NCBI GenBank assembly: GCA_020718085.1
Contig: DYDB01000001.1
Coordinates: 218,891-282,890 of the forward strand
DNA from: Micavibrio sp.
Lineage (GTDB): Bacteria; Patescibacteriota; Minisyncoccia; Moranbacterales; GCA-2747515
Length of the DNA: 64,000 nucleotides
Reading direction: 5' to 3'
The notes beneath the pieces are model-generated. The model was given only the letters and a program-made list of their open reading frames with translations, ran no database searches and was not told where the DNA came from. This document shows, piece after piece, positions 983-48,227 of the stretch. Numbering within the stretch: position 1 is the stretch's first letter; every line of letters starts with the position of its first letter. The translations under genes and the position numbers were made by a program.

Positions 983-1011
983 TTGACAAATTATAAAAAA
1001 TACGTTAAATT
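983..1011 (+). promoter_or_regulatory. Sigma70-like promoter (TTGACA-17-TAAATT) upstream of the 1104-5713 operon
   Basis: TTGACA at 983-988, 17-nt spacer, TAAATT at 1006-1011. Confidence 0.3.
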
Positions 1012-1103: not shown

Positions 1104-2681
1104 ATGAACATGAGCACAGCGGCAACGGCAGTAAAGGTCACGGAGGAACATGTGCAAGCTTTACGAGAGGGCACTGCAACAATTGAGACTGTTATGGAAA
1201 TGGGTGGCGTAGCGAATCTGGAAGAGCAGATCTCGCAGTTGACCATGGAAAAAACGGCGGAGTATTTCACGCGACGTACCGCATTGGAAGCGAGAATCCG
1301 CGAATTGACGGATCTCGATAATCAGGAAGGACTAGCAATGGCAAAGGCCGACCTGGAGTCAGTAGAGGTCGAGATTGCCAAGCGTGCAGAAAATGTTGGT
1401 ATGATCTTGTCTCAGATTGCTCAGAAGCTTGGGTATTTCAAGGATCTCGGAACAAAGCTGCTTGAGGATTCCCCTGAGGATGTTGCGAAACGGCAAGCGG
1501 CACTGGATGCCGTACAGGCAATCCGTGATCAAATTGCTAAAGCACAGGAACGTGCTGCAGCGGCTGAAACGGATAGAGCCACCGCTGAAACGAGCAAAAC
1601 AAATGCAGAAGCCGATCTGAAAAAAGCACAAGGCTCGTGGAATCTTTTAACCAAGGGCGGAAAGATCAATACTGCCAGAGCGGCAATTCAGTCGGCACAA
1701 CGGATCATCGATGCCAAACAAAGTGTCATCGATAATATGCCGGATGCCATTGCTGACCTCAACGAACAGTTTGAGACAGCACAGACCAACATCGTCTCCG
1801 TTGAGGAGCAAATCAAGGTTGATAAGGAGCATCGGATCCAGACATTGAGCCTTGATTCACTTTATGCAACCTTGACGGAGTGGGAGAGTAAGGTCTTTAA
1901 GATCATCGAAGCAGACATTGATGCAAATCAAGTCTGTATTGGTGACTCTGAAACAGCGCTTAAAGAATCTCGTGAGTTTGGTATTGCCGAAACTCGACGA
2001 CTCAAGGGCATTGAGGAGAGTATTGCAACTCTTGAAGTCGAGCTCGACGAGAAGCAGGCGGCATTGAAAGGCATTCTCGATCATGAGAGTGAAGAGTATT
2101 TCAAAGCTCGTGATGCGGCAAAAGACTGTGCAATGCGCCTTGATGAGCTTAACAAAGAATCTACGATCGTTCGTGGAAATCTGAGCAAGGCTGAGGTCAA
2201 GATCGCGGAACACGAGGCATCGCTGATGGCAATGAAAGCTGATCTGCAGTTACAGAAACGCAATTATAACGACTTTGCACTGGATGCCGAAGCGGCACGT
2301 AGCGTGGGTAACGCAATCGCCCAATTGATCAAAAATCAAACGGGAAAAACGGTCAGTGACTCATTGTCCAGAAGCAGAGATGCTATGACATTGACAGTAG
2401 TTGATGTATCGCTGCAAAATGCAACTGCAACAGTGAGGAGTCTTGCGGATCGTGCTGAGCGTGGTGTAACCTTGCTTGATAAGATCCAAAAGAAGCAAGT
2501 TGAAGGAGATGCGAACATTGCACTTCAGGAAGAACGGCTTGCCAAGGCTGAAGATCAATATCGGAAACAGTATGGTGGTGAGCAGGTTTTCCCCTCTTCA
2601 TCAGAACATGCTGCTCCAATAGAAACGATAGCGCCGGAAAAAAAACCGGCTGAAAGTGGTGGAAAAAGAACATTATTCTGA
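1104..2681 (+). CDS. Long coiled-coil protein (possibly TelA-like); first gene of a 3-gene operon
   Basis: ORF 1050..2681. Internal ATG at 1104 follows AAAGGAG with an 8-nt spacer. Sequence is dominated by heptad-like Ala/Glu/Lys/Gln repeats. Confidence 0.65.
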   Translation: MNMSTAATAVKVTEEHVQALREGTATIETVMEMGGVANLEEQISQLTMEKTAEYFTRRTALEARIRELTDLDNQEGLAMAKADLESVEVEIAKRAENVGMILSQIAQKLGYFKDLGTKLLEDSPEDVAKRQAALDAVQAIRDQIAKAQERAAAAETDRATAETSKTNAEADLKKAQGSWNLLTKGGKINTARAAIQSAQRIIDAKQSVIDNMPDAIADLNEQFETAQTNIVSVEEQIKVDKEHRIQTLSLDSLYATLTEWESKVFKIIEADIDANQVCIGDSETALKESREFGIAETRRLKGIEESIATLEVELDEKQAALKGILDHESEEYFKARDAAKDCAMRLDELNKESTIVRGNLSKAEVKIAEHEASLMAMKADLQLQKRNYNDFALDAEAARSVGNAIAQLIKNQTGKTVSDSLSRSRDAMTLTVVDVSLQNATATVRSLADRAERGVTLLDKIQKKQVEGDANIALQEERLAKAEDQYRKQYGGEQVFPSSSEHAAPIETIAPEKKPAESGGKRTLF

Positions 2682-2750
2682 TCCATCGCGTCCATCATGA
2701 GCGGCAGTCAATATTTGGCTGCCGCTCAATTGCTAGAAAGGAGTTTTTCC

Positions 2751-3785
2751 ATGAGAGAATTGATGATCACAGATCCAGAAAAATTGCATGCATACATGAG
2801 ATGTATGCATCAATCGATTGATGCGTGGGAAGATTCCTTGAAAAAACGCAATGGAGTTGACTGGCTATCATTCGATGAGATTCAGGTATGGCTTAAAAGA
2901 GTTCGTGTAACATTGGAGATCATGGAAAATGTCTATATCTTTGATGAGAAGCGATCTCTGATCGTAGAAACGTTGGGGTCAGGATTTCCAAAGAGACAAC
3001 ACTTTGATCATATCAATTTTACCAAAAGAACTGCGCGTTATGATAAAGGGCGCATACAAACGGTAAAGAGATCGTTTTTGAACGAGTTGTTCTCAAATGG
3101 CAATCAAATGCCGTCATTGGATCGTATCGCACGCTCACTGGCTTTTGATCTCCTTTTTCAAAATGAAGTTCTCGAAGCATTCCATTTTTCTGGAATTGAG
3201 AGAATCACAAACAATAATACGAGAGAGGATGCATTTGTATGTTCATGGGAACGCATCTCTGATGGCGTGCCTGTGAAGTACGTTATGTTATTTGACGTAT
3301 CGGATGGTTGGTCAATTCGAGAGCAAGATATGAATGAATTAGTGCTCATGTTACGTGAAAGGACGCTCTTTTTGGCACCAATGGAAAGAATTGCCAGAAG
3401 CATTGATGTGGCACATACTATGATCCATCCGAAATGGGTTGGACGCATCATACTTGGCCCTGTATTTATATCAGGCGTCACGTGTGATGATCATGCATTG
3501 CAATCAGCGCTGAACATTATTTCTTCCGAAGATATGATGAAAAGCGCATCGCGGATCATATACGAATACGTGATCTCGGAAAAAGAAGCTCCCGTTGATG
3601 GCGTGCATGATCAAAAGGGCAGGCTTCATACCACCATGCAGAAGTATGTTGTGCGATATGAACAGGAGCATTATCAGCGTGGTGTCACACATCTGGAAAA
3701 AATTCTTTTTGCAGAACATGACATTATACAAAAATTGGAGCCAGATTTTTTAAGAGAAATTGGCCATACGATATATGGTCATTGA
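2751..3785 (+). CDS. Hypothetical protein (operon member)
   Basis: ORF 2697..3785. ATG at 2751 is preceded by GAAAGGAG with a 7-nt spacer. Stop overlaps the next gene's start region. Confidence 0.6.
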   Translation: MRELMITDPEKLHAYMRCMHQSIDAWEDSLKKRNGVDWLSFDEIQVWLKRVRVTLEIMENVYIFDEKRSLIVETLGSGFPKRQHFDHINFTKRTARYDKGRIQTVKRSFLNELFSNGNQMPSLDRIARSLAFDLLFQNEVLEAFHFSGIERITNNNTREDAFVCSWERISDGVPVKYVMLFDVSDGWSIREQDMNELVLMLRERTLFLAPMERIARSIDVAHTMIHPKWVGRIILGPVFISGVTCDDHALQSALNIISSEDMMKSASRIIYEYVISEKEAPVDGVHDQKGRLHTTMQKYVVRYEQEHYQRGVTHLEKILFAEHDIIQKLEPDFLREIGHTIYGH

Positions 3786-3799
3786 CGGAGGAGATGAAG

Positions 3800-5713
3800 A
3801 TGAATAGCAAGTCACTGAACGCAGTTCCAATTACCCAAAAGGATCTGCGTGAAAAAATGTCAGGTGCCAAGGCTCTAATCAGATCGGCAAAATGGGAGAT
3901 CACGCCGACGGTAAATAAAAATGATCCGAATTACCATCAAAAAATGCTACGCAAACAGGAAGTTGAGGTGAGTATTCGTGGTTTGATAGAAAGGATCAAT
4001 GTTGAAGATGATCTTCTCAATGAAAGGCAGAATCACGTCATTCGTACTATTCGTGAAGCGTTGCAGTTGGCATTGCATGTTGCTGGCGACTACAGCAAAA
4101 GAGCGGGTGTGCCTGCGGTTATGCCAAAAGGTGCAACTTCTTTGCAAAAAACAGAGATCAAAGAAAAGGAGCAGACAGCAGCGGTTATCGCTTTGTTTGT
4201 CATGTGTCGATATATTATATGGAATTTGACCACGGACATCGGTAACAATTCTTTCCTTGCAACGGTCAGTCCTGAATTTACAGATCTTGATCTTTCAGGT
4301 GTGAATCAATCATTGATCTGCGGGACATTCTTTCTGGGAAGATCACTGGAAAAAGAGATGCAGGGAGATGATGCAAGGCTCATCGCGATTGTCTACAAGT
4401 ATGCAGATAGCTTGCAGCGTGACATGATCGATCGCACAATGTCTCTAAAGCACGGCGTGCCATTTACGGACATTTCGTATCAACTGGAAGAAACAGAATT
4501 TACCATTTCAGGTTTTGATACGATGCTGTCAAATGGGGAACGTATACAGGTCAGTGAAGTATATCCTGACCAGGTAATCGGCAATTCAAATGCGGTGGAT
4601 GGAACAGAAGATGGGATGAAAAAATTATTTCTGTATGATCCAATCGCACGTGAAAATCCCATCGGTGCTTTTGGCGGATTCCAAACTGTTAGATTGTATT
4701 CTGGCAGTCCAGGTAATGGTAAGACGCTTGTCCTTTCTGTGGCTCGAACGCTCGGAAGAGACTATGCGGAAGAATCAGGGCTGCCGTATCGAGATCTTGT
4801 TGTGCCAAATCTCGTGTCAAAAATGCAGGGTGAATCGTCGGATCTGGCAATTGAATTTTTAAGGAAATTGTTCGATCCAAACACGATCAATCTCGGCATC
4901 GGCGATGAATTTGAAGCAGTACTACCAGATCATGGAGGTGAACATATTTCAGAAGGTGACAAAAAAGTTGCAGTAGAATTTCTGAAAATGTTCAGTGGCG
5001 TCAGCAGTGTAGAACTTTATAACAAATTGTTCTTAGCTGCGACGAACTATCCGGAAAGTGTGGATCCAGCATTTATGAGCCGTATTAAGGTGCGGTATCA
5101 TGTTGTAGGAGCTGAGACCATCGATGATTACATCAGATTCATCATCTTGAATTTGAAGAAGGTCAACAAACAGCATCCAGGTCTGATCAATCTCAAAAAA
5201 GTAGATTGGGATCGAGACCTCCGAGGATCGCGTATACCAAATAGCTCAGTTATCAATGTTAATCCACTGGCAACAGTGCAAGACATTTATGATCAAGCGA
5301 TTGATATGTACGATCCCGATGACATCCGGTTTTTAGCGCATTTTTTCTATATGATGAAACTTCGCGAAGGAAAGTTCTCATTACGAGATTGTGCAAATAT
5401 CATTGATGCTGTGAAGGCAAGGATTGCTGGGTTTGATGTGCCAATGGAATTTATCAAAGCCAGTGGAGAATATCAGAATGGGAGCATTGAGGACAAACGA
5501 GGACTCATATCCGAGATCGCCTTCGGCCATGTCAAAAAGAGTGGCATTGACGTAGCAGCCCTTTTGGCACAAAATGCTCTGGAATATTCTGGAGAAGCAC
5601 TACGCATGGCAGAGACCAAGCGAGAACGTGATGCCGAGGCAATGGCAGAACAAATGGTTGTAAGTGAGCTTGCTCGGCAAAAGTTCAATAAAAAAATGGG
5701 TATGTCGTCATAA
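3800..5713 (+). CDS. Classic-clade AAA ATPase with a large N-terminal domain
   Basis: Walker A GSPGNGKT, Walker B IGDEFEA, second region of homology ATNYPESVDPAFMSRI. GGAGGA RBS 7 nt before the ATG at 3800 (ORF track 3782). Confidence 0.75.
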   Translation: MNSKSLNAVPITQKDLREKMSGAKALIRSAKWEITPTVNKNDPNYHQKMLRKQEVEVSIRGLIERINVEDDLLNERQNHVIRTIREALQLALHVAGDYSKRAGVPAVMPKGATSLQKTEIKEKEQTAAVIALFVMCRYIIWNLTTDIGNNSFLATVSPEFTDLDLSGVNQSLICGTFFLGRSLEKEMQGDDARLIAIVYKYADSLQRDMIDRTMSLKHGVPFTDISYQLEETEFTISGFDTMLSNGERIQVSEVYPDQVIGNSNAVDGTEDGMKKLFLYDPIARENPIGAFGGFQTVRLYSGSPGNGKTLVLSVARTLGRDYAEESGLPYRDLVVPNLVSKMQGESSDLAIEFLRKLFDPNTINLGIGDEFEAVLPDHGGEHISEGDKKVAVEFLKMFSGVSSVELYNKLFLAATNYPESVDPAFMSRIKVRYHVVGAETIDDYIRFIILNLKKVNKQHPGLINLKKVDWDRDLRGSRIPNSSVINVNPLATVQDIYDQAIDMYDPDDIRFLAHFFYMMKLREGKFSLRDCANIIDAVKARIAGFDVPMEFIKASGEYQNGSIEDKRGLISEIAFGHVKKSGIDVAALLAQNALEYSGEALRMAETKRERDAEAMAEQMVVSELARQKFNKKMGMSS

Positions 5714-5735
5714 TATGTGATACATCCATATAAAT

Positions 5736-5767
5736 GCGATAAGGAACATTTCCTTATCGCATTTTTA
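5736..5767 (+). terminator. Intrinsic terminator after the AAA ATPase gene
   Basis: GCGATAAGGAAC-ATT-TCCTTATCGC hairpin followed by ATTTTT. Confidence 0.6.
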
Positions 5768-5769
5768 AT

Positions 5770-5798
5770 TTGACAAATGATCTTATGTATAGTACTAT
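5770..5798 (+). promoter_or_regulatory. Sigma70-like promoter (TTGACA-17-TACTAT)
   Basis: TTGACA at 5770-5775, 17-nt spacer, TACTAT at 5793-5798, upstream of the 5877 gene. Confidence 0.3.
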
Positions 5799-5876: not shown

Positions 5877-7118
5877 ATGCAAGAACTTATAGATGCTGGT
5901 CTGTATGGAAAGGGACTCATCTGCATTGATGACGCAGAACTTATTAGAAGATATAATGCATGTCTGGAGATGATTGGAGTGAAAAAAGTACGGCGAAAAA
6001 GAATTTGTATTGATCGCATGGGATGGAGTCCTGATGTTGCTGCGACGCTTGGTAATAATTTTTACTTGTCGAGAGGAGAGGCAAATCCATTCGCTATTAT
6101 CATCACGCCAAAACAAAAGTATGCGCCGATCTACTTTCCATGTCATTCGTTTGATTGGGAGCTCATGCATCAGTGGTTTGTGATATATGAACAAGAAGTT
6201 TCTGAGATCACAAAATATACTGGCATCTTGCTGGACATAGATCAGGAGGTTAATGCTTATGAAGATGAGAGAGATCTGATTATGGTTGATCATGTGATCG
6301 TTCGTGTGAGCACACCTGGTAGTTTAATAGAAGAAGCGCGATCACAAAAAGTGCTTGTGGAACGTTTTATGCAAGAAAGAAAGATCATCGAGATCCAACA
6401 TATTGCACGTGATCTCATGGTATCGCGTGCAAAGATTGGTGATATGCGCAATCAAAAAGTCTTCATTGACGATCTGCGTTTTGAGGGTTTATGTGTATAT
6501 TATACCAGAGCGTTTGGAGGCACATTTGTGCTTTGCCAAAATGGTGAACATGCATCCGATGAGTACTTTATTCTCAATAAGAGCATTGCTCGTAGTTCAT
6601 CTGGAATTAACTCAGTGATTGATAAGAATATTTTATCAAAGCTGGAATCTTTTCATTTGATCGATCTGGGAGTCACATTTTGGATCGATAATGTAACTTG
6701 TTTGGAATTAATAAGAGATTCCTTTTTGATGGAGTATTTAGACAAGTATGATCCTGATCTCAATTTTGTTGAGCTGAGCCCCGCACTCAAAAAGGGCATG
6801 ATCGCTGAGATTTCATCAGAATTGCCGATCGAATATCACGAGCTTGATATCTTGATACGGTCTATTCGTAGCAATCGTAGTCCGGCTAACATTCCTGACA
6901 TTATAAGACCATTTCTCATGTATCCGCGGAGGGAATTGTCGATCGTTACTATTGAAGTGATCTGGCATATCCTCACTCTGGTGTGTGATGGAAGAAATGT
7001 GCTCATGCTCTATCTGTATGATAAAGATAGTTTCATGCAAATGTTTGGAACGTGGAAAACTCCCCGTAAAACATGGGCGATAAAGGTCATCCAAAAATAT
7101 CATGTAAATCGGTTATAA
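5877..7118 (+). CDS. Hypothetical protein
   Basis: 413-aa ORF with a GAGGGGA RBS; no recognisable domain. Confidence 0.6.
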   Translation: MQELIDAGLYGKGLICIDDAELIRRYNACLEMIGVKKVRRKRICIDRMGWSPDVAATLGNNFYLSRGEANPFAIIITPKQKYAPIYFPCHSFDWELMHQWFVIYEQEVSEITKYTGILLDIDQEVNAYEDERDLIMVDHVIVRVSTPGSLIEEARSQKVLVERFMQERKIIEIQHIARDLMVSRAKIGDMRNQKVFIDDLRFEGLCVYYTRAFGGTFVLCQNGEHASDEYFILNKSIARSSSGINSVIDKNILSKLESFHLIDLGVTFWIDNVTCLELIRDSFLMEYLDKYDPDLNFVELSPALKKGMIAEISSELPIEYHELDILIRSIRSNRSPANIPDIIRPFLMYPRRELSIVTIEVIWHILTLVCDGRNVLMLYLYDKDSFMQMFGTWKTPRKTWAIKVIQKYHVNRL

Positions 7119-7165: not shown

Positions 7166-7274
7166 ATTTGACCGATTTTTGATATTATGGTAGAGTTATA
7201 TGATTTGTAAATTTGGAAATGAAATATGAGGCAAATCAAAACAGTTATTTAACATTACATGGAGGGTGGTCTGT

Positions 7275-7787
7275 ATGGTCAAATACGAGATGATCGGGGC
7301 AAGTATACTTCTTGTTTTGGGTATATTAATACTTGTGCCAGCTATTCAGAAAAATGTAGCACGACTAATCGGTAGTTTTATGCCGCGTCAGTGGCTTTCT
7401 TATGCAGGTGTCATATTCATCGTGACATGGATCTACGTTGTGGTTCCGCGACTCAATTTTGTTTTGGGACTGACATTCATATCTCTTTCGCTTGTCATGA
7501 TCTTTGCCGTACCGAATAATCCGCAGATCAGAGCATGGGTCAGTGAGATGTTCTTCACAGGAAATGACATTTTTGATGTAAATGCGCCGTATGCGGATGT
7601 TGTGGATCTTTTCAGGTGGCCACTATTCGGATTGGGCGTATATATTGTTTGTCAACAAATGCTCATTGTGTTGGATCTCATGCCTATTGCATTTGCATTG
7701 TATGTGTGGCGCAAGCGTGTGAAAAAAGCAGAGATCAAAATGCAACAAAGCAATTCAGGTGAAATGCAGTCAATGTATAATATTTGA
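7275..7787 (+). CDS. Integral membrane protein (4-5 TM helices), hypothetical
   Basis: ORF 7266..7787. ATG at 7275 follows a GGAGGG RBS. Hydrophobic helices throughout. Confidence 0.6.
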   Translation: MVKYEMIGASILLVLGILILVPAIQKNVARLIGSFMPRQWLSYAGVIFIVTWIYVVVPRLNFVLGLTFISLSLVMIFAVPNNPQIRAWVSEMFFTGNDIFDVNAPYADVVDLFRWPLFGLGVYIVCQQMLIVLDLMPIAFALYVWRKRVKKAEIKMQQSNSGEMQSMYNI

Positions 7788-7834
7788 TTTGGTCGTAACA
7801 CACAAAAAATCAGAACTGAAAAAAGGAGGAAGTG

Positions 7835-8371
7835 ATGCACAAGCTGACGTTCATTTTAGGACTCGTTGCAATCGTGATCGGTCTCGGAGCTATGATAGCG
7901 AAAAACAAGAAGGATGGACTGACGTTCCTGGCCGATAAGTTTGGTGATGGATGGGAATCCAGTCTTGCCGGCATTTGGCTGGGATGGCGACTGGTGGCAT
8001 TGGGTATGGTATGCTTGATGTTCTCCTGGCAACATCTGACTCTTGGGAGCTTGTTCTCAGGAGGTCATCTCGTCGGCACACTATCAATATTAGCCGGCAT
8101 CATTTTCATTATGATGCGACACAATCCTTCTGGTCTTGTATGGTTCGAAAAGTATTTCGGCGCAGGCTGGCGGACAAATATTTTTGCCAGGTTTTTTGAC
8201 TGGCCGCTCCTAGCAGCTGGAATTGCCATGTGGTTTCCCGACAAGGATTGGTACGATGTTCTGAAACTATTTGGATTCTTTATTGCGTTTTGGTTGTGGA
8301 CCATGTTTGGAGGCAAGCGAGCTTCCAAGAGCACTGGTGTACCGCCAGCCACGGATAAACAGCAAGCGTAG
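7835..8371 (+). CDS. Integral membrane protein, hypothetical
   Basis: ORF 7832..8371. AAGGAGG RBS. Multiple TM helices. Confidence 0.6.
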   Translation: MHKLTFILGLVAIVIGLGAMIAKNKKDGLTFLADKFGDGWESSLAGIWLGWRLVALGMVCLMFSWQHLTLGSLFSGGHLVGTLSILAGIIFIMMRHNPSGLVWFEKYFGAGWRTNIFARFFDWPLLAAGIAMWFPDKDWYDVLKLFGFFIAFWLWTMFGGKRASKSTGVPPATDKQQA

Positions 8372-8458: not shown

Positions 8459-8528
8459 TGAAACGTTGTTCGTTACAAATTTAGAACAGGTTGTTCACTC
8501 ACATATCACTCAGACAATGGAGGTTGTC

Positions 8529-9746
8529 ATGGCAGAACTGAATGAAGAAATGGTAGAAGAGAGAAGAAGTGCGTTTGGGCATGTGCTCGACGAAATTGTG
8601 AGCATTTTCAATGCGGAAAAGCGTCAAAATGTCAAAGATCAACGTAAAGATGAGAAGATCGTCAAAAAGATCCTGTATTTTTTATGGGATTATCTGATCG
8701 CCGGTCCGTTGTATGGTTTCTTTTGTGCTGTTGTTTCAATTGGTAAAGCATCGTGGGATGCGGGGTCGTCGTATAATAGTTATGTCAAACAGGTGATCGC
8801 TCGCAAGGAAAAGCCACTCGTGCATTATCTGATGTATGCTGCGTATGTGCTATGGCCCGTTGCGTTGTTTATTATTCCAATAGGCATTTGTGTTATCACC
8901 ATAACTCTACTTGTTGTGGTGGATCAAGTTGTCTACCCGGAATTTCCGATCAATCCAAAATTTGACCAAAAATCAAATGCGGAACTGTCTTTGGATCGCA
9001 AAAGCGCACTGCTATTTGAGGCAGCGACTCATCAAATGAACAAAGAAATGCAGTCACTTACCGGTTGGACGCCGAATGACTTGTCTTGGATGCCGACGAA
9101 GTGGTTTGATAATAAACTGAATCGTCAAATAGGCGTGCGAAACGCAACGCGATTGTTGACTGCTGCGATGTCTGTAAAATTTACAAATCTCGGACATGGT
9201 ACGAAAGAAAATGATGATACGCGAGAAGGTAGCGCAAATCTCAGCTCACCAGAGAACAAATGGAACATGGGCTTTGGTGATACGGAAGTTAATTTCATTG
9301 ATGGGCTTAACCTCTTGCAAAAGTATATTACAGAGGCAAATGCGGCGAATGGAAAAAAAATGTCCAACATTAATCCACCTGATCTGCTTGATATCATGAA
9401 TGTGATTATTTATGATGTTCTGCGAGAACCCCTGGGACGATTGCAGGAACAGGAAAAGCCTCTTACGTTTAGTGAATTGGATGACGAAGTGTATTATGCA
9501 CAAGGTACGGCAATTGTAGTGCGTGATGTGCTTGTGGCACTGCGGTCTACATTTCCGAGTATCATGGTCAAAGGAGAGTCAGAGAATCTCAATATGGCAA
9601 TCGAAAAATTAAGCAAGATGGCTGATGATAATCCGTATTGCGTATATTCGATCATGGAATTGGGAGATACACGTGCGATCTTTGCAACGTTTTACAACAG
9701 CGCAATGGAGCAGTTGAAAGTTGTCGCAAGTTCCATCAAAGTGTGA
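8529..9746 (+). CDS. Hypothetical protein with an N-terminal TM segment
   Basis: ORF 8466..9746. ATG at 8529 follows GGAGG with a 5-nt spacer. Confidence 0.6.
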   Translation: MAELNEEMVEERRSAFGHVLDEIVSIFNAEKRQNVKDQRKDEKIVKKILYFLWDYLIAGPLYGFFCAVVSIGKASWDAGSSYNSYVKQVIARKEKPLVHYLMYAAYVLWPVALFIIPIGICVITITLLVVVDQVVYPEFPINPKFDQKSNAELSLDRKSALLFEAATHQMNKEMQSLTGWTPNDLSWMPTKWFDNKLNRQIGVRNATRLLTAAMSVKFTNLGHGTKENDDTREGSANLSSPENKWNMGFGDTEVNFIDGLNLLQKYITEANAANGKKMSNINPPDLLDIMNVIIYDVLREPLGRLQEQEKPLTFSELDDEVYYAQGTAIVVRDVLVALRSTFPSIMVKGESENLNMAIEKLSKMADDNPYCVYSIMELGDTRAIFATFYNSAMEQLKVVASSIKV

Positions 9747-9755: not shown

Positions 9756-10220
9756 ATGGAGCATATGACTGCTGAAGTACAAAAAATTGCGCACGCGCTC
9801 ATGGCATTGATCGATGGCGTTCGATGGACCGTTACACATATCGGCATTGAGAGGTATGTGGAAAACGGTCCGCAGTGGGTGCGTTTGGAAGTCGCGCTCG
9901 GTGATCAAAGGCATAAGTATCTGATTGCACGCAAGGAAATGGTTAGGGCATGGATTGCTTTGGATCAACGCGGAGAATCAATTGTTGAGGGTATGCAAAC
10001 ATTTGTCGATGGTCATGAATGGATACCTGTCGAGACGAATATCGTGCAGATCGATGGTGTACGGTGTGTACAATTGACCTTGCAGACCACGGATGCGATA
10101 ACTCGTCAAACAGTTATCATTGATCATCATGGTCTCGTGGATGCGTATTACGCACTACGAACTGGCATAGAGCTTCTTTCAGATGCACAAGAGGCAATGG
10201 GCTATCTTACCAGCTTTTAA
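9756..10220 (+). CDS. Hypothetical protein
   Basis: 154-aa ORF with a GAGGAAAG RBS. Confidence 0.55.
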   Translation: MEHMTAEVQKIAHALMALIDGVRWTVTHIGIERYVENGPQWVRLEVALGDQRHKYLIARKEMVRAWIALDQRGESIVEGMQTFVDGHEWIPVETNIVQIDGVRCVQLTLQTTDAITRQTVIIDHHGLVDAYYALRTGIELLSDAQEAMGYLTSF

Positions 10221-11704: not shown

Positions 11705-12733
11705 ATGGACATTGCATATTTATCACGTTATCTTACAGAACATAAATATCCTGCTTTTCGTACAAAACAGATCATTAAAGGTGTCATACAAGATGGCTGT
11801 GCGACATATGCAGAAATTACAACAATTCCGCGAGCCCTTCAAGAAGAATTGACGCGTGATGTACCAATTTTACCGTTCGCTGTGGTTTCTGTGCATACAT
11901 CACATGACGGGCAAGCAGTGAAAGCATTGCTTCAACTGACGGATGGAGGGCATATGATCGAAACGGTTCTGATCTCTCCAAAACCGGGCATGTGGTCTGC
12001 ATGCATCTCGTGCCAGGTGGGTTGTGCCATGGGCTGTGCTTTTTGTGCAACAGGAAAACTTGGATTGAAGCGCAATCTTACAACAGACGAGATCACATCA
12101 CAAGTGCTTTTCTGGCGACAATATTTAAAAAAGCAACAGATTGCTGGCACATTTGATAACATCGTCTATATGGGCATGGGAGAGCCATTTATGAATTGGA
12201 AAAATGTGAGAGAGAGCATCAGCATTTTGACAGATAAAACACTATTTAGTTTTTCCAATCGCGGACTTTCCGTATCAACTTCCGGCGTTGTTCCGGGAAT
12301 CAAAGATTTCGCGGACACGTGCCCGCAGGTCAACCTGGCGATCTCACTGCACTTTGCGTCAGATGAAAAGCGTACAATGTATATGCCTGTCAATACAGGA
12401 TATGATCTTTCTGCACTCAGAGAAGCATTGCAATATTACTTATCAAAAAACAAACGTAAAATATTTATTGAATATATCATGCTCAAAGGGATCAACGACA
12501 CGCCGGAAGATGCGCGACTACTTGCACAGTATGTGTCGTCGATCGGACACATGCAGCTCTTACATATCAATTTGATCCGCTATAATTCCATCGGAGAAAA
12601 TTTTATACCATCAGATCGTGATACAGTCAAAAAATTTCAATCTGTCATGCAAAAAATGCATATTCCCTGCACAATTCGCAAGAGCGTGGGAGATGATATT
12701 AGTGGTGCGTGTGGGCAACTTGCAGGGAAGTAG
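11705..12733 (+). CDS. rlmN: Radical SAM 23S rRNA/tRNA adenine C2-methyltransferase RlmN
   Basis: CxxxCxxC radical SAM cluster (CQVGCAMGCAFCATG) and RlmN-like length and motifs. Confidence 0.9.
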   Translation: MDIAYLSRYLTEHKYPAFRTKQIIKGVIQDGCATYAEITTIPRALQEELTRDVPILPFAVVSVHTSHDGQAVKALLQLTDGGHMIETVLISPKPGMWSACISCQVGCAMGCAFCATGKLGLKRNLTTDEITSQVLFWRQYLKKQQIAGTFDNIVYMGMGEPFMNWKNVRESISILTDKTLFSFSNRGLSVSTSGVVPGIKDFADTCPQVNLAISLHFASDEKRTMYMPVNTGYDLSALREALQYYLSKNKRKIFIEYIMLKGINDTPEDARLLAQYVSSIGHMQLLHINLIRYNSIGENFIPSDRDTVKKFQSVMQKMHIPCTIRKSVGDDISGACGQLAGK

Positions 12734-12755
12734 TCTGGAAAAATATAAAAATATA

Positions 12756-14750
12756 TTACACAATGGAGATTGGATCTACATCGATCGCCCATGCGAGATC
12801 GCAGTCGCGCAGAATATAATGAAGATGCTCAGGAATCTGCGCATGTGCACTGCGGATGACGATCTGACGATAGTACTTTGTGCGCACTTTATTTACGATC
12901 GGATCATGCGGTTCGGAAATGCGGATATTTTTATCATCTTTACATGCAATGCACAGTTGTCCATATTTTTCGTCTACGATTTTGTGAACTTTTTCTTTTA
13001 CATCACCCTTACAAGTGATCTTGATGATCTGTGCATAGGGAGGATAGGATAGAACTTTGCGCAGTGCCAATTCTTCCTCATAAAAACCGTTGAAGTCATA
13101 TGTGGTGGCAAAGAGCAGAGCCGGGTTTTCTGGTTGAAATGTTTGTACAAGTACAGTGCCGTGATTTGTGCGCGCAGTAAGTTGCATGATATATGAAAAA
13201 GCTTTCTCGTTCCCATCATATGTCGGCAGACTGAGCAAGTCGTCCATGTCAATGATCCCGCAGAGCGCAACATGATCACCATGCCAACCTTTTGTGATCA
13301 TTTGTGTGCCGATCACTACATCGATCTCTTTTTTACGAAAAGCATCATAGATATTTTTGTGGGCATCCGCTTTTTTCATCGTTGAAGAATCAACCACGGC
13401 GATGCGGGCATTGGGAAGTATTTTGTGCAATTCTTTTGCAATGCGTTGAGTGCCGATCCCAATGTGTTCGATTGGCGCTTTACATGCTGCACATTTTGCA
13501 TTGTCCGGTTTGGTAAAAGAACAATGTATGCACACGTATTTTTTGGATGTGTGATGAATGAGTGCGCGATTGCATGTGGGGCACAATACAACACTCCGAC
13601 ATTTGCTACAGATTGAAAAAGCACTCTCACCTTGACGATTGACGAATAGGAGCACCTGTTTGTTTTTTTGAATAGCTGTTTTGATCTGATATGTTAGCGT
13701 GCGTGACAAAGGAGATTTATTTTTATCCCATCGTTCTTTTTTCATATCTACGATCTCGATTTTTGCACAAGCGTTTTCCGGTGACTGTATGAATGTGAGA
13801 GAGTCGTCCTTGGTCAGCTTGTGGACATAATCAACCGCGCGCGGTGCGGCCGATGTAAGAATATGCGTTGCATTGTGCATTTGTGCGAGTGTGCGTGATA
13901 CTGTACGTGCATCATAAAGCGGATAGTGGTCCCACTGTTTATGCGAAGGATCGTGGGCTTCATCAACAATGACCATTTTGAGATCGGTGAATGGTGCAAA
14001 AAGTGCACTGCGTGTTCCAATGACAATACGCACTTTGCCGGCGCGAATGGCGCGCCATTTATGATAGAATTGCCCACGGGGAATTTTGCTGTGGAGGATG
14101 GCAATTTCTTCACTGGGAAAAAACTGATGAAAGAATTCAGAAATGTACGGTGTTTGCATGAGCTCGGGAAGAATGTAGATCGCTTGAGCAGTGTCATCGG
14201 CGCGGATCTCTTGCAAAAGCGCCAAGAGAATTGTCATTTTATCACGTACAACAGGCGCATGGAGAAAAAATGATCGCGATGACGCATGATCGGCAAGAAG
14301 TTTCTTGATGATCTTTTTTTGTGTCGGACCGGTTTCCACAATTTGTTTTTTTACGCGTGATGAAACCGGCATACCGCGCATCATGGTGCGTTGTGGAACG
14401 AAGTGCTTAAGGACGAGTCCCAAAGGTGCGTAATAATATGTGGATATATAATGCGCTAACTGTAATTGGCGCTCAGTTAAAAATGCGTTTTCAAGTACTT
14501 TGGCAATGCGTTTGAGTTGAAATTGACTGTCGCGAGGAAAATCTGGAGCGCTATTGGTCACAACACCTTCAATGGTGCGTCGTCCAATTGGGATAGTGAC
14601 CAGTGTGCCAACAGGCAAGGATTCATGCCAGAGATAGAAAAACGACTGATCACGCGTGAGAGAGATGCGCGTAAGCGGTGCCACGGATATGAGATATTTT
14701 TGATCTTCTTTATTCATGAGATTATTGTAGCATAATCGCCACTCATTCAT
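12756..14750 (-). CDS. priA: Primosomal protein N' (PriA helicase)
   Basis: DEAH-type helicase motifs (VIVDEAHD), Cys4 zinc-ribbon insertions (CSKCRSVVLCPTCN..CIHCS) and a 664-aa length. Confidence 0.9.
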   Translation of the reverse strand: MNEWRLCYNNLMNKEDQKYLISVAPLTRISLTRDQSFFYLWHESLPVGTLVTIPIGRRTIEGVVTNSAPDFPRDSQFQLKRIAKVLENAFLTERQLQLAHYISTYYYAPLGLVLKHFVPQRTMMRGMPVSSRVKKQIVETGPTQKKIIKKLLADHASSRSFFLHAPVVRDKMTILLALLQEIRADDTAQAIYILPELMQTPYISEFFHQFFPSEEIAILHSKIPRGQFYHKWRAIRAGKVRIVIGTRSALFAPFTDLKMVIVDEAHDPSHKQWDHYPLYDARTVSRTLAQMHNATHILTSAAPRAVDYVHKLTKDDSLTFIQSPENACAKIEIVDMKKERWDKNKSPLSRTLTYQIKTAIQKNKQVLLFVNRQGESAFSICSKCRSVVLCPTCNRALIHHTSKKYVCIHCSFTKPDNAKCAACKAPIEHIGIGTQRIAKELHKILPNARIAVVDSSTMKKADAHKNIYDAFRKKEIDVVIGTQMITKGWHGDHVALCGIIDMDDLLSLPTYDGNEKAFSYIMQLTARTNHGTVLVQTFQPENPALLFATTYDFNGFYEEELALRKVLSYPPYAQIIKITCKGDVKEKVHKIVDEKYGQLCIACKDDKNIRISEPHDPIVNKVRTKYYRQIVIRSAHAQIPEHLHYILRDCDLAWAIDVDPISIV

Positions 14751-40458: not shown

Positions 40459-43400
40459 ATGACCTCCAAAAATAGCATTATCGACAATCATAGTCATAAT
40501 AACCTCTATCGAGCCATATCCGACGCAATAGGGTCTGACACAATAGGCATAGATATTGAGGTCGGATATTTTTATCTCTGTGGTTTTGAACTTTTGTCAA
40601 AAAAACTCAGTAAAATCAAAGTGCGATTATTAGTTGGTTCTTATATTGACCCAGAAGCTATGCCAACTTTGATAATGGAGTCGATGAAAAAATCAACGAT
40701 AAATCTTGATCCTTTTCAGCCTAGAAGCATTCCGTCATCAAAACAAGAAAGAGTCCGAGCTTTTAGCGAAGGCATTAAAAAACTTGCAAACCAAACGTCA
40801 ATATTTGACGCGCCGGAAGCACAGGAATCATACTCAATTCTCGAAAAAAAACTCGAGGATGGCTCCCTTGAAATTAAAATGACCGAAACACAAGCACATG
40901 GAAAATATTATGTGATCCATAATAAAAATGTAGGCAAAGTCTTTATGGGCTCGAGCAATTTTACGTATAATGGCCTAATTGGACAACAGGAAATAAACGA
41001 ATCTTTTGATTCAGAAGAAAAATATATAGAATATTCAAATAAATTTTCTGATCGATGGTCTGATGCTCGCAATATTGTCATTCAAGAAAAAGGAAAATCA
41101 GACATGTTTTTGAGAAAATTTAAAGATGAGCTGTGGATGAATGTGGTGCCGACCCCGTATCTTATGTATATTCGACTTCTTAATGAAATATTTGGTGCCG
41201 AATATGAAATTGATGTAACTAGCGCCTCGCAGGCAACACGAGGACAATATTTAAATCTTTCATATCAGATGGACGCGGTGAAGATGGCACTTGAAAGATT
41301 AAAAAATTATGATGGTGCTATTATTGCAGATGTTGTTGGTTTAGGGAAAAGTGTTATAGCTACTACTATTGCTGTAAACTGTCCTGACTTAAAAACGATC
41401 ATTATTGCTCCGCCACATTTAGTTCCGATGTGGGAGGATTATGTTGAAGAATTTAAACTTCGAGGACCAAAGGTTTTTAGTTCTGGGAAAATTGATGATG
41501 TTTATAATAAATACAAAAATTCTACAGAGCCTATATTATTTATCTTTGATGAAGCCCATAGATATAGAAATGAGGACACACAAGACTATCAGTCACTTCA
41601 TCAATTGACTCGCAGCAATAGTGAAAATAAGGTTCTAATATTATCCGCAACACCTTTTAATAATGATCCGAGTGATATCTTTGCGTTGATTAAACTTTTT
41701 CAAACCCCTGGTGCAGCTACACTCCGAACAGTGGAAAATTTATCAGCAAAGTTTGCAGATCTTGCAAATAGATACAAAATGCTGCGACGATTTCAAGCAA
41801 AGGGAGCCGTAACCGCAGATCAACGTAAAGAATTGGATATCAAGCGCGACGACATTGCTTCTGAACTTCGACGATTGCTCGAACCTATTATAATTAGACG
41901 TTCAAGGATAGATCTTGAAAAAATTACTCGATACCGAGAGGATTTAAAAGCTCAAGAAATTGAATTTTCAAAGATGAACGATCCAATTATCCGGGAGTAT
42001 GAGTTAGGTGAATTTACCAGCATATATCTGGATACTATAGAGCGAATTGTGCCAAATTCTAAAATCGCGGGTGGTTTAACTGGTGCGCGATATATGCCAA
42101 CGACCTACGCATTAGATATTGTTGAATTTGCTGAGAAGTATCCAGAATTGGAGGATATCAGAACTGCTCAAATGAACGTGGCTTCTTTTATGCGCAAACT
42201 TTTGGTAATGCGCTTTGAAAGTTCAAGAGCGGCGTTCAAAAGCACTCTGCAAAAATTTATCGATTCACATCAAAAAATTCTTGATTGGGTAGAAAAGAAA
42301 CAATTAGTACCGATTTCCAAGAAAGCCTACATTCCCTCTCCAGATGAGATGCCGGAAGAGGATACCGAAGAAATCAATTTGGAAGAACATGCTGAATTTG
42401 CAAACACTGAAGTTAAAAATAGTAAAAAGATTGTTTTCGTCAAACTTGAAGATCTGAATGAAAATTTTGTACCTGAGCTTAAGCGCGATATCAGTGTACT
42501 AAGAGATATTTACGAAAAATGGTTTGGTTCGCGATCGCCATTTTTATCGATGCCAGACCCAAAATTAAAACAACTCACGCTAGATATTCAAGAACATCTA
42601 GAAAATGATCCCCATCGAAAAATAATTATTTTTAGCATGTATGCTGATACTGTTGTTTATGTGGGAGAATCTCTGCAAAAGTCTGGAATTTCAACATTAG
42701 TTTATACTGCCCAGAATAGCAGAAATGATCGCAAAATAGTGAGAGAGAATTTTGACGCCGGTATCCCGGACAATAAACAATCTGATGATTTTAGAGTTCT
42801 TGTTGCAACTGATGCTTTGAGCGAGGGCGTAAATCTAAATAGAGCAGGACGAATTATTAATTATGATATTCCATATAACCCAACCAGAGTCATACAGCGA
42901 GTGGGCAGAATAAACCGCATAGATAAAAAAATGTTTAATGAGCTTTTTATTGATAATTATTTTCCTACCGAACACGGCGAGAAGGAAACAAATATTAGAG
43001 GGGTATCAACATTAAAGATGCAGATATTTAATTCCGTGGTAGGAAATGACTCGCGCACTCTCACGAAAGATGAAACCCCAGAATCATTTTTTATCGATGA
43101 ATTTAGAAAAGCAACGACTGAAGAAGAGAGTTGGGACACTACTCATAGAGAAGCATATGAGCAAGCAAAGAAAAATATTGAAGTAATTGAGCTTGCAAAA
43201 AAAATACCGATGCGAGCGCGAATTATTAGAAAAAATAAACAAGTTCAATTGGGAGTTGGCGTTGGTATTCGCGGCGAAAATAAAATTTATGCTCTTGAAA
43301 ATAGTGGACAGGCTGAGTTGGTTGATGCAGAAAAAGTATTAAATCATTTTGCGGCGAAGCAAGATGAAATTGGCGAGAAAGCCGATGATCAGTTTGGTGT

Positions 43401-43746
43401 TGTATTTGATGCAATTAAAGAAAAATTATTTGAAAAACCGCCGATGGGAAGAATGTCAAAAAACCGAACTGATGTTGTAAATATATTACGAAGCGTTCAA
43501 GAATCTCAGTATCAGAATTATTGTGATGATTTATTGCAAGTTGTGAGTGATCTTGACGATCTTTCAGAAGGTCAACTCAAGGCAATAATAAGGCTCGCAA
43601 AAAATACAGACGTATCTGATGATAAATTGCTGGAAGGCATTATTGAAATAGCGCCAGAACAGCAGATAAGAGTTAGTTTAGAAAGACAAAGCAATGAAAC
43701 AAAATCAGCAAATCTTCTATTATTCACTCAAGAGCACCGAGTATGA
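40459..43746 (+). CDS. PLD-family nuclease domain fused to an SNF2/SF2 helicase (restriction-type motor-nuclease)
   Basis: N-terminal PLD-like HxK..GSxN (HGKYYVIHNKNVGKVFMGSSNF). Helicase motifs I (DVVGLGKS), II (DEAHRYRN), III (LSATPFNN) and VI (QRVGRINR). Confidence 0.85.
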   Translation: MTSKNSIIDNHSHNNLYRAISDAIGSDTIGIDIEVGYFYLCGFELLSKKLSKIKVRLLVGSYIDPEAMPTLIMESMKKSTINLDPFQPRSIPSSKQERVRAFSEGIKKLANQTSIFDAPEAQESYSILEKKLEDGSLEIKMTETQAHGKYYVIHNKNVGKVFMGSSNFTYNGLIGQQEINESFDSEEKYIEYSNKFSDRWSDARNIVIQEKGKSDMFLRKFKDELWMNVVPTPYLMYIRLLNEIFGAEYEIDVTSASQATRGQYLNLSYQMDAVKMALERLKNYDGAIIADVVGLGKSVIATTIAVNCPDLKTIIIAPPHLVPMWEDYVEEFKLRGPKVFSSGKIDDVYNKYKNSTEPILFIFDEAHRYRNEDTQDYQSLHQLTRSNSENKVLILSATPFNNDPSDIFALIKLFQTPGAATLRTVENLSAKFADLANRYKMLRRFQAKGAVTADQRKELDIKRDDIASELRRLLEPIIIRRSRIDLEKITRYREDLKAQEIEFSKMNDPIIREYELGEFTSIYLDTIERIVPNSKIAGGLTGARYMPTTYALDIVEFAEKYPELEDIRTAQMNVASFMRKLLVMRFESSRAAFKSTLQKFIDSHQKILDWVEKKQLVPISKKAYIPSPDEMPEEDTEEINLEEHAEFANTEVKNSKKIVFVKLEDLNENFVPELKRDISVLRDIYEKWFGSRSPFLSMPDPKLKQLTLDIQEHLENDPHRKIIIFSMYADTVVYVGESLQKSGISTLVYTAQNSRNDRKIVRENFDAGIPDNKQSDDFRVLVATDALSEGVNLNRAGRIINYDIPYNPTRVIQRVGRINRIDKKMFNELFIDNYFPTEHGEKETNIRGVSTLKMQIFNSVVGNDSRTLTKDETPESFFIDEFRKATTEEESWDTTHREAYEQAKKNIEVIELAKKIPMRARIIRKNKQVQLGVGVGIRGENKIYALENSGQAELVDAEKVLNHFAAKQDEIGEKADDQFGVVFDAIKEKLFEKPPMGRMSKNRTDVVNILRSVQESQYQNYCDDLLQVVSDLDDLSEGQLKAIIRLAKNTDVSDDKLLEGIIEIAPEQQIRVSLERQSNETKSANLLLFTQEHRV

Positions 43747-46700: not shown

Positions 46701-47201
46701 AAAACTTCAGATTACCCATTTCTTAGACGAGGAACTTCTCATCAGGAAATATTTGTATCGCCTAAAATAGTTACTCCATATCGATGTTCTGTAAACTTGT
46801 TCGCATATAATGATATTCCTTGGTATGCGAGAACTGATGTGTATTATTTATCTGAAAAAGACAAGAGAATATCTCTTAAATATATACTCGGCTTGTTAAA
46901 TTCAAAACTTTATTATTTATGGCTCTATCATCGTGGAAAAAGAAAAGGAGAGCTTTTAGAAATATTACAAAAACCTTTATCTGAAATTCCAATTAAAAAA
47001 ATACCAGAGCTAGAACAAAAACCCTTCATCGAAATTGTTGATAAAATTTTGACAATTACCAAATCCAGCGATTATTTAGAAAATCCAGCAAAAAAAGCAG
47101 AAGTCGAAAAGTACGAAGAGGATATTGATAAGCTTGTTTATAAGCTCTATGACCTTACGTATGAAGAAATTGAAATTGTGAAAAAATCAATTAAAAAATA
47201 A
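43743..47201 (+). CDS. Gamma-class N6-adenine DNA methyltransferase (Eco57I/PglX-like) with large N- and C-terminal (TRD-like) regions
   Basis: SFYTPREIV, DPACGSGAFP (motif I) and NPPY (motif IV, IGNPPYVGE). Start overlaps the upstream stop (ATGA), so translationally coupled. Confidence 0.85.
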   Translation: MKNPIFENKFNEEAFNDFIHGIIPNLSLGKKRAEVRTGFKSIQQIAEAGGNTLDLVVFVAKIESSLHARVEITKNTYSILKSHARSNALVAYISDDSSEWRLSLITTKVTRTKDGIRESISNPRRFSYVLGPDAKVATPSKMLQGHVDSIIDLENKFSLAVVSKEFFTQIATQYSKLVGGTRGAGKKAIVFKRTLKLGDENDAVNANFAIRLIGRLVFCWFLKQKKGHADNPLIPSEILSVSAVKTISDYYHSVCVPLFFEVLNKPQSSRPTFYSHAELFDKVPFLNGGLFQDHVEDNHKFNRATGMSERRGVVDVPDVWFSELFQIFEEYNFTIDENTSIDTELSIDPEMLGRIFENLLAEVNPETGASARKSTGSFYTPREIVDFMVEESLIAHLKTQINISEDKLRALSSYDLDDDVSQPIDPQERKLIVEAIHNTTVLDPACGSGAFPIGVLQRLVHMLGVLDPECSIYLSKIPPEVRRELQKHSLTYVRKLGVIRECIHGVDIQPIAIDISRLRCFLTLVVDQQVDDSAPNRGIEPLPNLDFKFVCANTLVKPPVHEGPLFGDEFATALGELIDEYFAPVDQLHKLETARKLQQLISDKTKKELENILKSYSYIKDEKYKKALAQKNEKSDAERMRINNLWGSYENIFQNKPVGFFDTRYFFPTVFRNGGFDIVIGNPPYVGEKGHKEMFREIKYSPLGKRFYQGKMDFFYFFFHVALDNLQDDGVLAYITTNYYLTALGARKLREDFKNRTIIKKLVNFNELKIFKSAAGQHNMVTILTKRQNNGTLVKTCITKNTGDTTPAVLESIIGWKDNNTDYYEVAQKDLYDGEENYLRLAGTNSERNPLQFLLNKIKEKGELLENICNINTGIMGGCDYINKSNIEYCTQRERLQKDIQVGDGVFVLDIKNDRDKKVFDIIQNNKSLVKFFKNSDIVKYHTSYSTTKYIIFSSRENDAVKDSNVMKHLDKFKQVLIKIREINNEKTSDYPFLRRGTSHQEIFVSPKIVTPYRCSVNLFAYNDIPWYARTDVYYLSEKDKRISLKYILGLLNSKLYYLWLYHRGKRKGELLEILQKPLSEIPIKKIPELEQKPFIEIVDKILTITKSSDYLENPAKKAEVEKYEEDIDKLVYKLYDLTYEEIEIVKKSIKK

Positions 47202-47278
47202 TTATATTAACGCTGGTTTTTCATATCTCAAATATTATTAGTAGACTTGGGGGAATAACATAATTAATAATTAAAAAG

Positions 47279-47680: not shown

Positions 47681-47685
47681 ATAAT

Positions 47686-48168: not shown

Positions 48169-48227
48169 AGGTTTCGCCTAAATGAATAATGCTGTTCATT
48201 TATTAATTACTTACATAATTTTAAAAT

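Follow-up and report, generated by a model that had tools for sequence, protein, structure and literature searches.

A stretch of 64,000 nucleotides from a Micavibrio sp. assembly (GCA_020718085.1, contig DYDB01000001.1, positions 218,891 to 282,890 of the forward strand; called the window in what follows) carries between its positions 1104 and 5713 three closely spaced genes, A, B and C, the last of which encodes a AAA ATPase of the classic clade. Classic-clade AAA ATPases are central remodelling motors, and to our knowledge few bacterial members besides FtsH have been characterised. The question raised by this locus is what such an ATPase might act on and which proteins might work with it. 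Judged from comparative sequence analysis, A, B and C together with a fourth gene, D, which encodes a DUF6638 protein, are the conserved soluble four-gene core of an uncharacterised multi-protein AAA+ module that is joined to an exchangeable membrane sub-module. As to its function, we favour, with a probability of roughly 40%, a reading in which a hexamer of C, together with the DUF6638 protein and B, would remodel or disassemble assemblies of protein A by way of the C-terminal tail of A, at the membrane beside the transmembrane (TM) sub-module.

Conservation of the gene order

All-against-all clustering of open reading frames (ORFs) over 14 loci (given L numbers below where they must be told apart) placed B, the AAA ATPase and the DUF6638 protein in every one of them, and likewise A, which falls into two sequence groups. 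The order A-B-C-D is the same throughout, in bacteria of the candidate phyla radiation (CPR) type, Rhizobiaceae, Vibrio and Flavobacteriales, while the flanking genes differ; no other flank gene was conserved across the 14 loci, and the outer flanks hold, variously, HisRS, NAD synthesis, IF2 or ribosomal proteins. Because the gene order is kept in every related locus examined, the arrangement of A, B and C is not due to chance, and the neighbourhood comparison that an earlier note on this DNA had proposed speaks for the operon which it had described from the sequence alone. That note did not extend to the rest of the unit, which also holds DUF6638, small TM proteins and a DUF2333 protein, nor to the homologues in Proteobacteria and Bacteroidota. 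Typically, the core is followed by one or two small membrane proteins, a DUF2333-like protein and, sometimes, a protein of about 155 aa.

The proteobacterial copies show how far the conservation reaches. In Sinorhizobium meliloti the genes encode, in order, a 362-aa hypothetical protein, a 382-aa hypothetical protein, a 638-aa 'ATP-binding protein', an endonuclease-domain protein next to an insertion sequence (IS) element, DUF6638 and DUF2333, and in Vibrio they encode proteins of 359, 371 and 634 aa followed by DUF6638. The proteobacterial and window ATPases are 25% identical over nearly their full length (E 1e-40), the DUF6638 proteins match with an E value of 1e-23, and window B is homologous to the proteobacterial B proteins (hhalign 99.1%). 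Residues 241-423 of A are homologous to the protein of about 360 aa with which the proteobacterial operons begin (hhalign 90.9%, E 1e-6 over an alignment of 181 columns, as against 0.3% for the reversed control). In S. meliloti and Shinella the module occupies the same place, between tdk and fhs, and because this chromosomal position is shared by two Rhizobiaceae its function should be directly testable by genetics in S. meliloti.

The close family is rare. A scan of 185,579 GTDB species found members in two, a Parcubacteria-group metagenome-assembled genome (MAG) and a Moraniibacteriota MAG; the search patterns were peptides specific to the window sub-family, so that this count is no gauge of how widely the family as a whole occurs. 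A scan of metagenome contigs added one short locus. A tblastn search of plasmid records with the DUF6638 protein returned 10 records, comprising chromosome-size Rhizobiaceae replicons and 0.9-Mb Vibrio megaplasmids, and a search with the rhizobial ATPase returned exactly the same 10. L012, which is the S. meliloti Ak57 record CP090106 (labelled pSymB, 3.7 Mb) and has an IS4-like ISRm16 element and the endonuclease-domain gene between its AAA and DUF6638 genes, and several other 'plasmid' records (Sinorhizobium sp., Shinella) have the size of chromosomes and carry core genes (tdk, fhs, trpE and a choline ABC transporter); they look, therefore, like mislabelled chromosomes.

In the window itself, all genes and signals of the unit lie on the forward strand, and A, B and C are preceded by strong ribosome-binding sites (RBSs), as the earlier note had said. 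Gene A (1104..2681) encodes 525 aa (526 codons including the stop) behind an RBS, AAGGAG, at 1090-1095, eight bases upstream, and its start is backed by a 99%-identical NCBI protein, likewise of 525 aa. Gene B (2751..3785; RBS AAAGGAG at 2736-2742) encodes 344 aa, and gene C, the AAA ATPase gene, spans 3800..5713 (RBS GGAGGAG at 3787-3793). The longest ORF of C opens with TTG at 3782 and, as previously noticed, overlaps the stop codon of B (TGA, 3783-3785), and an alternative start, ATG at 3794, would give 639 aa; because both the RBS and the alignment of orthologues favour ATG 3800, the protein is probably one of 637 aa. The lengths given earlier were, thus, correct for B and off by one for A (526 aa) and for C (638 aa). 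In 13 of the 14 loci the stop of B and the start of C are 0-14 nt apart or overlap, the gap being about 98 nt on the Vibrio plasmid. A consensus scan predicted a sigma-70-like promoter, TTGACA-17-TAAATT, upstream of gene A (983..1011, 10/12 matches) and a second promoter-like site, TTGACA-17-TACTAT (5770..5798), for the DUF6638 gene. Between the two stands an intrinsic terminator (5732..5764; 15-bp stem, 3-nt loop and T-run) that closes the A-B-C transcription unit; the earlier note was right about a terminator after C, but the functional unit goes on past it.

The AAA ATPase and the DUF6638 protein

Protein C belongs to the classic clade of AAA proteins, with a PF00004 score of 43 bits against a cut-off of 21.2 (residues 300-435), and its proteobacterial homologues score 41.8 and 50 bits. 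It consists of an N-domain (1-290), a AAA core (297-440), a lid and a long C-terminal helix (585-632), and has a single AAA domain. The canonical motifs picked out in the earlier note are all present: Walker A (GSPGNGKT, 302-309), IGDEFEA (367-373, with D369-E370 as Walker B) and ATNYPESVDPAFMSRI (414-429). Across the C clades G302, P304, G305, G307, K308 and D369 are invariant, N416 of sensor 1 is invariant or nearly so, and the second region of homology (SRH) has R428 as its sole invariant Arg; the neighbouring position is Ser in the window, and the window clade appears to lack a second arginine finger. Pore loop 1 reads SKMQGES (340-346) in the window clade and S-[Y/F]-Q-G-x-S in the L006/L009 clade and in Proteobacteria, with Q343, G344 and S346 invariant across the family, and a lid motif, F-[ST]-x-R-x-x-x-N, is near-invariant across clades. 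When the lid sequence F-S-L-R-D-x-x-N-I is aligned with G-F-S-G-A-D-I-A-N-I of paraplegin, R529 falls at the position of sensor 2, which in classic AAA proteins is Ala, but this alignment is weak (E ~1). The core is apparently a competent one of unfoldase type.

The remainder of the protein sets it apart. As the earlier note had it, the AAA module is preceded by an N-domain, here about 290 residues, to which no family could be assigned, and neither this domain nor the lid and C-terminal helices found relatives in the PDB or Pfam. In an AlphaFold2 model (pLDDT 77) the N-domain is a small alpha/beta unit followed by four helices of 19-34 residues. Only 12 close homologues were retrieved from a collection of 5.8 billion proteins, and the protein was judged to form a new family among classic-clade AAA ATPases.

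Profile searches of the PDB and Foldseek matched C to Afg2/Drg1, Cdc48, p97, NVL/Rix7, Rpt, ATAD1 and katanin. With a family-wide profile of the AAA core the D1 domains of Cdc48, p97 and Afg2 scored 68-82 bits, against 51 for katanin and 51 for Rpt4, from which it follows that the core is generically of the classic clade and nearest to Cdc48 D1, rather than specifically Vps4-like. Vps4B scored about 41 bits with a profile of the window clade, and a closest kinship with Vps4, hinted at by the per-domain scores of that profile, was rejected on the strength of the family-wide profile. The likeness to Cdc48, p97, VAT and Afg2 rests on these best profile matches to a single D1 domain, on a Foldseek probability of 1.0, on a sizeable N-terminal domain as a potential site of partner binding and on the presence of dedicated cofactors. 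In contrast to Cdc48 and p97, the window ATPase has one AAA domain instead of two, its N-domain has no detectable relation to their double-psi-barrel N-domain, and A, B and DUF6638 are unrelated to the Cdc48 cofactors Ufd1, Npl4 and UBX. Katanin and spastin, like C, are single-ring classic AAA proteins with a helical N-domain, and they engage their clients through a disordered tail, the C-terminal tail of tubulin; the pattern D-x-A-x-x-x-R-x-x-x-R in the SRH of the window protein presumably matches the motif of the meiotic clade. However, the katanin score is lower, the second arginine finger seems to be lacking in the window clade, and the module includes no tubulin, FtsZ or other known cytoskeletal gene.

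That Afg2/Drg1, NVL and Rix7 are the top matches in both sequence and fold brings to mind a factor for the biogenesis of ribosomes or other large complexes, analogous to these eukaryotic proteins, and the genomic setting of some copies points the same way. In three CPR-type lineages the whole module lies inside the spc ribosomal-protein operon, between rplE and rpsN/rpsH (L009 5367-18645, L019 6621-14981 and L020 3287-13778), being followed in L009 by the gene for a Zn-type S14 and by rpsH. However, the ribosomal proteins of the three lineages are 68-79% identical, and because the lineages form one clade a single insertion explains the location; moreover, in L019 rplE and gene A are separated by a terminator and a TTGACA promoter that belong to the module. 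The other loci are not near ribosomal genes, the matches reflect a general similarity to Cdc48 that two-domain scoring inflates (Cdc48 and p97 do equally well), and membrane partners do not fit such a role. A biogenesis factor is, thus, scarcely tenable as an explanation.

The DUF6638 protein, 413 aa long, is encoded by gene D (5877..7118). It matches PF20343 over residues 14-410 with 74.2 bits (cut-off 27, E 1.2e-20), and its S. meliloti homologue does so with 256 bits. In 12 of the 14 loci D follows the AAA gene without an unrelated gene between them, the exceptions being S. meliloti, where the IS4-like element and the endonuclease-domain gene intervene, and L008, where a Na+/H+ exchanger gene does (12082-13323; PF00999, E 3e-64). 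In a Flavobacteriales MAG (L023 11117-14365) the two are one: downstream of A (456 aa) and B (370 aa), a single uninterrupted ORF of 1082 aa matches the window AAA protein in residues 1-646 (E 2e-53) and the window DUF6638 protein in residues 664-1074 (E 8e-58). Of all the evidence, this fusion and the strict co-occurrence of the two proteins argue most strongly for DUF6638 as a subunit of the ATPase machine, and on the sequence record it is taken to be the ATPase's obligate partner. PDB sequence searches with D and with the DUF2333 protein E (see below) gave only generic coiled-coil or insignificant matches, and in the searchable literature DUF6638 is not mentioned at all. On a sister contig of the fused locus (L024, 11117-20387) the AAA and DUF6638 parts are separated by an McrBC cassette, made up of McrB AAA_5, the McrB lid, McrC and two ORFs, and the N-domain and AAA core are called as separate genes.

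The helical protein A and protein B

Protein A, for which ten syntenic orthologues were collected, is rich in Ala, Glu, Leu and Lys and has only two Pro in residues 1-496, and its heptad periodicity exceeds the 95th percentile of shuffled sequences in 25% of scan windows, against 5% expected. Such a composition indicates a helical, partly coiled-coil protein; the earlier description of A as almost entirely coiled coil holds to that extent, a coiled coil along the whole length being plausible but not proven. Its C-terminal tail, of some 30-40 aa and ending in Phe, is predicted to be disordered, and a low-complexity tail of 35-45 aa occurs in all ten CPR-type orthologues, with F or Y as last residue in nine and L in one. 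The first third of the protein holds a motif, W-x-x-L/F-x-K-x-x-K (about 179-187), which seven of the ten orthologues of CPR type share in the form W-x-x-[LF]-[FGT]-K-x-x-K; similar aromatic/basic stretches were recognised by eye in the A proteins of S. meliloti (FIGIFSRQK) and Flavobacteriales (WNILFGMK). A changes much faster than the ATPase, with 26-28% identity within one clade as against 57-59% for the AAA protein, and window A is nearest to that of L006 and L009, whereas the window ATPase is nearest to those of L001 and L008.

The earlier note had likened A to TelA, or else to the filament-forming PspA and ESCRT-III proteins that work with Vps4-type ATPases. TelA proteins are similar in size to the proteobacterial A of about 360 aa, are similarly helical and have an aromatic/basic 'F-x-G-x-F-x-K' after their first helices, and both TelA and the module are linked to the cell envelope. 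However, a kinship with TelA found no support, since PF05816 matched neither window A nor seven other CPR-type orthologues nor the S. meliloti and Vibrio proteins, even at permissive thresholds, and TelA operons are not known to contain a AAA ATPase, DUF6638 or DUF2333. The structural maintenance of chromosomes (SMC) family, which the note had named as a possible alternative affiliation, gave no meaningful match either (TIGR02168, 15.9 bits against a cut-off of 567, in a coiled-coil segment without a head-domain match).

The second comparison amounts to a rival explanation, according to which the module would be a true bacterial ESCRT-III/PspA and Vps4 system, with A as a divergent filament former and C as the Vps4 orthologue that disassembles it through an MIT-MIM interaction. 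The operon logic is alike: a helical protein that probably forms polymers and has a flexible tail at its C-terminus, as ESCRT-III proteins do, is paired in one operon with a single-ring classic-clade AAA protein that has a helical N-domain and a C-terminal helix, membrane proteins are near, Vps4 and katanin are among the PDB profile matches, and several bacterial associations of PspA or Snf7 with AAA proteins are on record (PMC11237479). However, the architecture found here is missing from the associations catalogued in that study, and ESCRT systems have no counterpart of the obligatory subunits B and DUF6638. Window A did not match PspA_IM30 (PF04012) or Snf7 (PF03357) at E<=0.1, nor did the S. 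meliloti and Vibrio proteins at the same threshold, and eight A orthologues gave no match at E<=10, a setting at which the speed filters of HMMER drop most matches above E ~0.1. A PDB search with a profile of these eight orthologues returned generic coiled coils and no PspA, Vipp1 or ESCRT-III chains, and hhalign comparisons of a 10-sequence A profile and of a proteobacterial A profile with PspA, which was represented by two sequences (E. coli and Pseudarthrobacter) and thus limited the sensitivity, gave 0.3-0.4% (E ~0.17), the same as reversed controls. Moreover, A measures 360-540 aa as compared with about 220 aa for PspA and ESCRT-III proteins, and on the side of the ATPase the MIT domain (PF04212) is absent from window C and from nine N-domains scanned at E<=10, while the core is nearer to the D1 domain of Cdc48 and Afg2 than to Vps4. 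Neither a PspA/ESCRT-III-like A nor a Vps4-type C could, thus, be upheld, and membership of this family is not supported and very unlikely; it is possible that the module works in an ESCRT-III/Vps4-like manner by analogy.

Protein B appears to be a soluble alpha+beta protein of a small unnamed family, with the conserved motifs SGFP and HPKWVGRxxLGP, the latter generalised among relatives as HP-x4-R-x2-LGP. Close homologues number 16 in the 5.8-billion-protein collection, and an exhaustive HMMER search of 1.84 billion proteins assembled a family of 267 clusters at 50% identity, all of 340-415 aa and single-domain, the named members of which come from Candidatus Yonathbacteria, a Patescibacteria-group MAG and Flavobacteriales. 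An AlphaFold2 model based on 16 sequences (pLDDT 88.6, pTM 0.87) shows five helices in its N-terminal region and, C-terminal to them, an alpha+beta domain whose strands are long and curved. With this model Foldseek found nothing at E<=0.001 in the PDB or BFVD, and a PDB sequence search with B found nothing significant. A and B, like the small proteins g5, g6 and g8 described below, matched no family in Pfam, NCBIfam, PADLOC or PHROGs; A and B are, thus, in no named family, and D and E are DUF proteins. A kinship among A, B, D and E themselves was rejected (hhalign at most 0.5%).

Membrane partners and a possible mechanism

The membrane context that the earlier note had surmised was borne out in that membrane proteins belong to the conserved neighbourhood, lying downstream of the core in most loci. 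In the window these are g5 (7266..7787, 173 aa, about four TM segments, start codon uncertain) and g6 (7832..8371, 179 aa, three to four TM segments), which a hydropathy scan identified as small polytopic membrane proteins and which are weakly related to each other, and gene E (8466..9746), which encodes a membrane protein of the DUF2333 family with up to 426 aa. Homologues of g5 stand at the same position in L001 and L018, and those of g6 in L001, L002 and L008. Gene E was recognised by PF10095 (27.7 bits, cut-off 22, residues 139-295) and by its TM segments, about two of which are predicted beside a domain of some 280 aa; DUF2333 occurs at this position in nine loci, including S. meliloti, where the syntenic gene is annotated as DUF2333 and scores 58.7 bits, and Shinella. 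The start of E is uncertain. Its longest ORF (TTG start, 426 aa) is missing as an exact sequence from the protein collection in which the neighbours' are present, and the true start is, therefore, probably a downstream ATG. The last gene of the unit, g8 (9756..10220), encodes a soluble protein of 154 aa with homologues at the same position in L001, L008 and L018 only, and appears to be an accessory member limited to the window sub-lineage.

Flavobacteriales have, downstream of the core, a small TM protein and a 532-aa protein with three TM segments; the protein that occupies this place in the CPR-type locus L006, a locus without DUF2333, shares 31% identity with the latter (E 9e-96). The idea that this membrane protein of about 540 aa and DUF2333 are homologous was rejected (hhalign 1.4%). 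Two unrelated membrane sub-modules thus substitute for each other on one soluble core: DUF2333 with small TM proteins, or the protein of about 540 aa with a small TM protein. The DUF2333 protein of L009 (16788-18005) shares 43% identity (E 1e-103) with its S. meliloti counterpart (L012 11294-12517) and only about 23% with those of other CPR-type loci. This affinity, along with the differing nearest relatives of window A and the window ATPase, suggests component exchange or very uneven rates of change.

We favour a mechanism in which C would form a single-ring hexameric protein translocase or disassemblase. D would be its permanent accessory subunit, as the AAA-DUF6638 fusion argues, and B, the gene of which is closely coupled to that of C, may be a cofactor or adaptor. 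Together, B, C and D would remodel or disassemble assemblies of A, their client, which C would grip by the flexible C-terminal tail with the terminal aromatic residue as a docking point, beside the membrane sub-module on the cytoplasmic side. The sequence and fold matches of C are substrate-threading unfoldases (Cdc48, Afg2, Rpt, ATAD1 and katanin), which counts in favour of this mechanism, as do the constant order of the four core genes, the closeness of B to C, the tail of A and its fast evolution, the membrane partners, and the housekeeping flanks without defence or phage matches. Several observations weigh against it. In the window a terminator and a fresh promoter part C from D. The pore loop of the window clade has Met in place of the aromatic residue; SKMQGES resembles the D1 loop of yeast Cdc48, Met included. 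The Walker B pair is DE in the window clade and DD in most relatives, some of which may, therefore, be slow ATPases. No adjoining membrane partner was seen in the Vibrio and Rhizobium leguminosarum loci, and neither experiment nor homology gives A, B, D or E a functional annotation.

The existence of two unrelated membrane sub-modules on one soluble core suits another explanation, namely, that the AAA ATPase, DUF6638 and B power the membrane sub-module as a motor of transport, insertion or extraction, comparable to EccA in type VII secretion, Bcs1 or Msp1, with A as a chaperone, stator or cargo receptor instead of a client. The partner of about 540 aa has three TM segments at its N-terminus, and its large C-terminal domain would, as read from the sequence, lie outside the cell by the positive-inside rule, ATAD1/Msp1 is among the fold matches, and the module is kept in small CPR genomes. 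However, the loci contain no signal peptides or known secretion components, no channel-forming family was recognised, no candidate cargo gene is conserved in the flanks, and the Vibrio module lacks an adjoining membrane gene. This explanation is considered unlikely.

The earlier note had also raised the possibility of a defence module, and an anti-phage or other conflict system, with the AAA protein as sensor or effector alongside its partner proteins, would fit the patchy phyletic spread, the presence on Vibrio megaplasmids, the fast evolution of A and B, the exchange of components between lineages indicated by the rhizobial affinity of the L009 DUF2333 protein and the McrBC cassette inserted in a Flavobacteriales copy. 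No known defence family was matched, however. PADLOC-DB 2.0 gave no match for A, B, D, g5, g6 or E, and for the ATPase only weak ones, to TRIP13 (E 9e-6) and IetA (E 2e-5), which, although they can be counted for a conflict system, are generic and limited to the core domain. There is no nuclease, protease, TIR or other effector domain, no PHROG, phage or viral homologue of the module was found, the flanks are housekeeping genes instead of defence islands, and the position is conserved, between tdk and fhs in S. meliloti and Shinella and within the spc operon in one CPR clade. A conflict system is, thus, quite improbable.

Returning to remodelling of A by C and its partners, what the comparisons establish is a distinct AAA family that is always accompanied by three other soluble proteins, A, B and DUF6638, and usually by a membrane sub-module. 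Because the module survives in very small Patescibacteria/CPR genomes, and in one clade inside a ribosomal-protein operon, it is likely to have an important cellular role. A wider proposal, which we put forward tentatively and regard as doubtful, is that the module represents an unrecognised ancient AAA machine for ATP-driven remodelling near the membrane, made up of a helical scaffold, a cofactor of new fold, the AAA-DUF6638 pair and an exchangeable membrane complex. If this were true, it would be a functional parallel to ESCRT-III/Vps4 or NSF/SNARE that is built from unrelated parts and retained in genome-reduced candidate-phyla bacteria and rhizobia. Solving the module would assign functions to two unnamed families as well as to DUF6638 and DUF2333, and might uncover a kind of membrane or protein-assembly homeostasis that is new.

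The literature has touched on these genes twice. DUF2333 receives a passing mention beside the hcp3 locus of Pseudomonas fluorescens, and a DNA fragment bound by ChvI lies inside SMc02733 of S. meliloti strain 1021 (PMC3687685), a gene that, judged by gene order, may be the AAA gene. Beyond these two, searches for DUF6638, DUF2333, the Pfam and COG identifiers and the S. meliloti locus tags returned nothing.

The window is a segment of a bacterial chromosome with 40% G+C and nearly all genes on the forward strand, and the neighbours of the module include PriA, GltX, RecQ, PCMT and PurB; no RNA genes were found in it. A phage or viral origin of the module was considered and rejected, since megablast and tblastn searches against phages and an IMG/VR scan were all negative. 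Just upstream of gene A, an ORF of 176 aa (445-975) matched nothing in Pfam, NCBIfam, PADLOC or PHROGs, and it was rejected as a member of the unit because it is conserved beside the module in no other locus. Some 35 kb downstream, at 40459-50477, lies a defence island. It encodes a 1095-aa HKD(PLD) and Snf2 helicase protein (PADLOC 'HKD+Snf2', 3e-33; DrmD, 5e-32), next to it an overlapping type IIG restriction-methylase of 1152 aa (2e-67), and, at 49755-50477, a 240-aa Mrr-like/type IV restriction protein.

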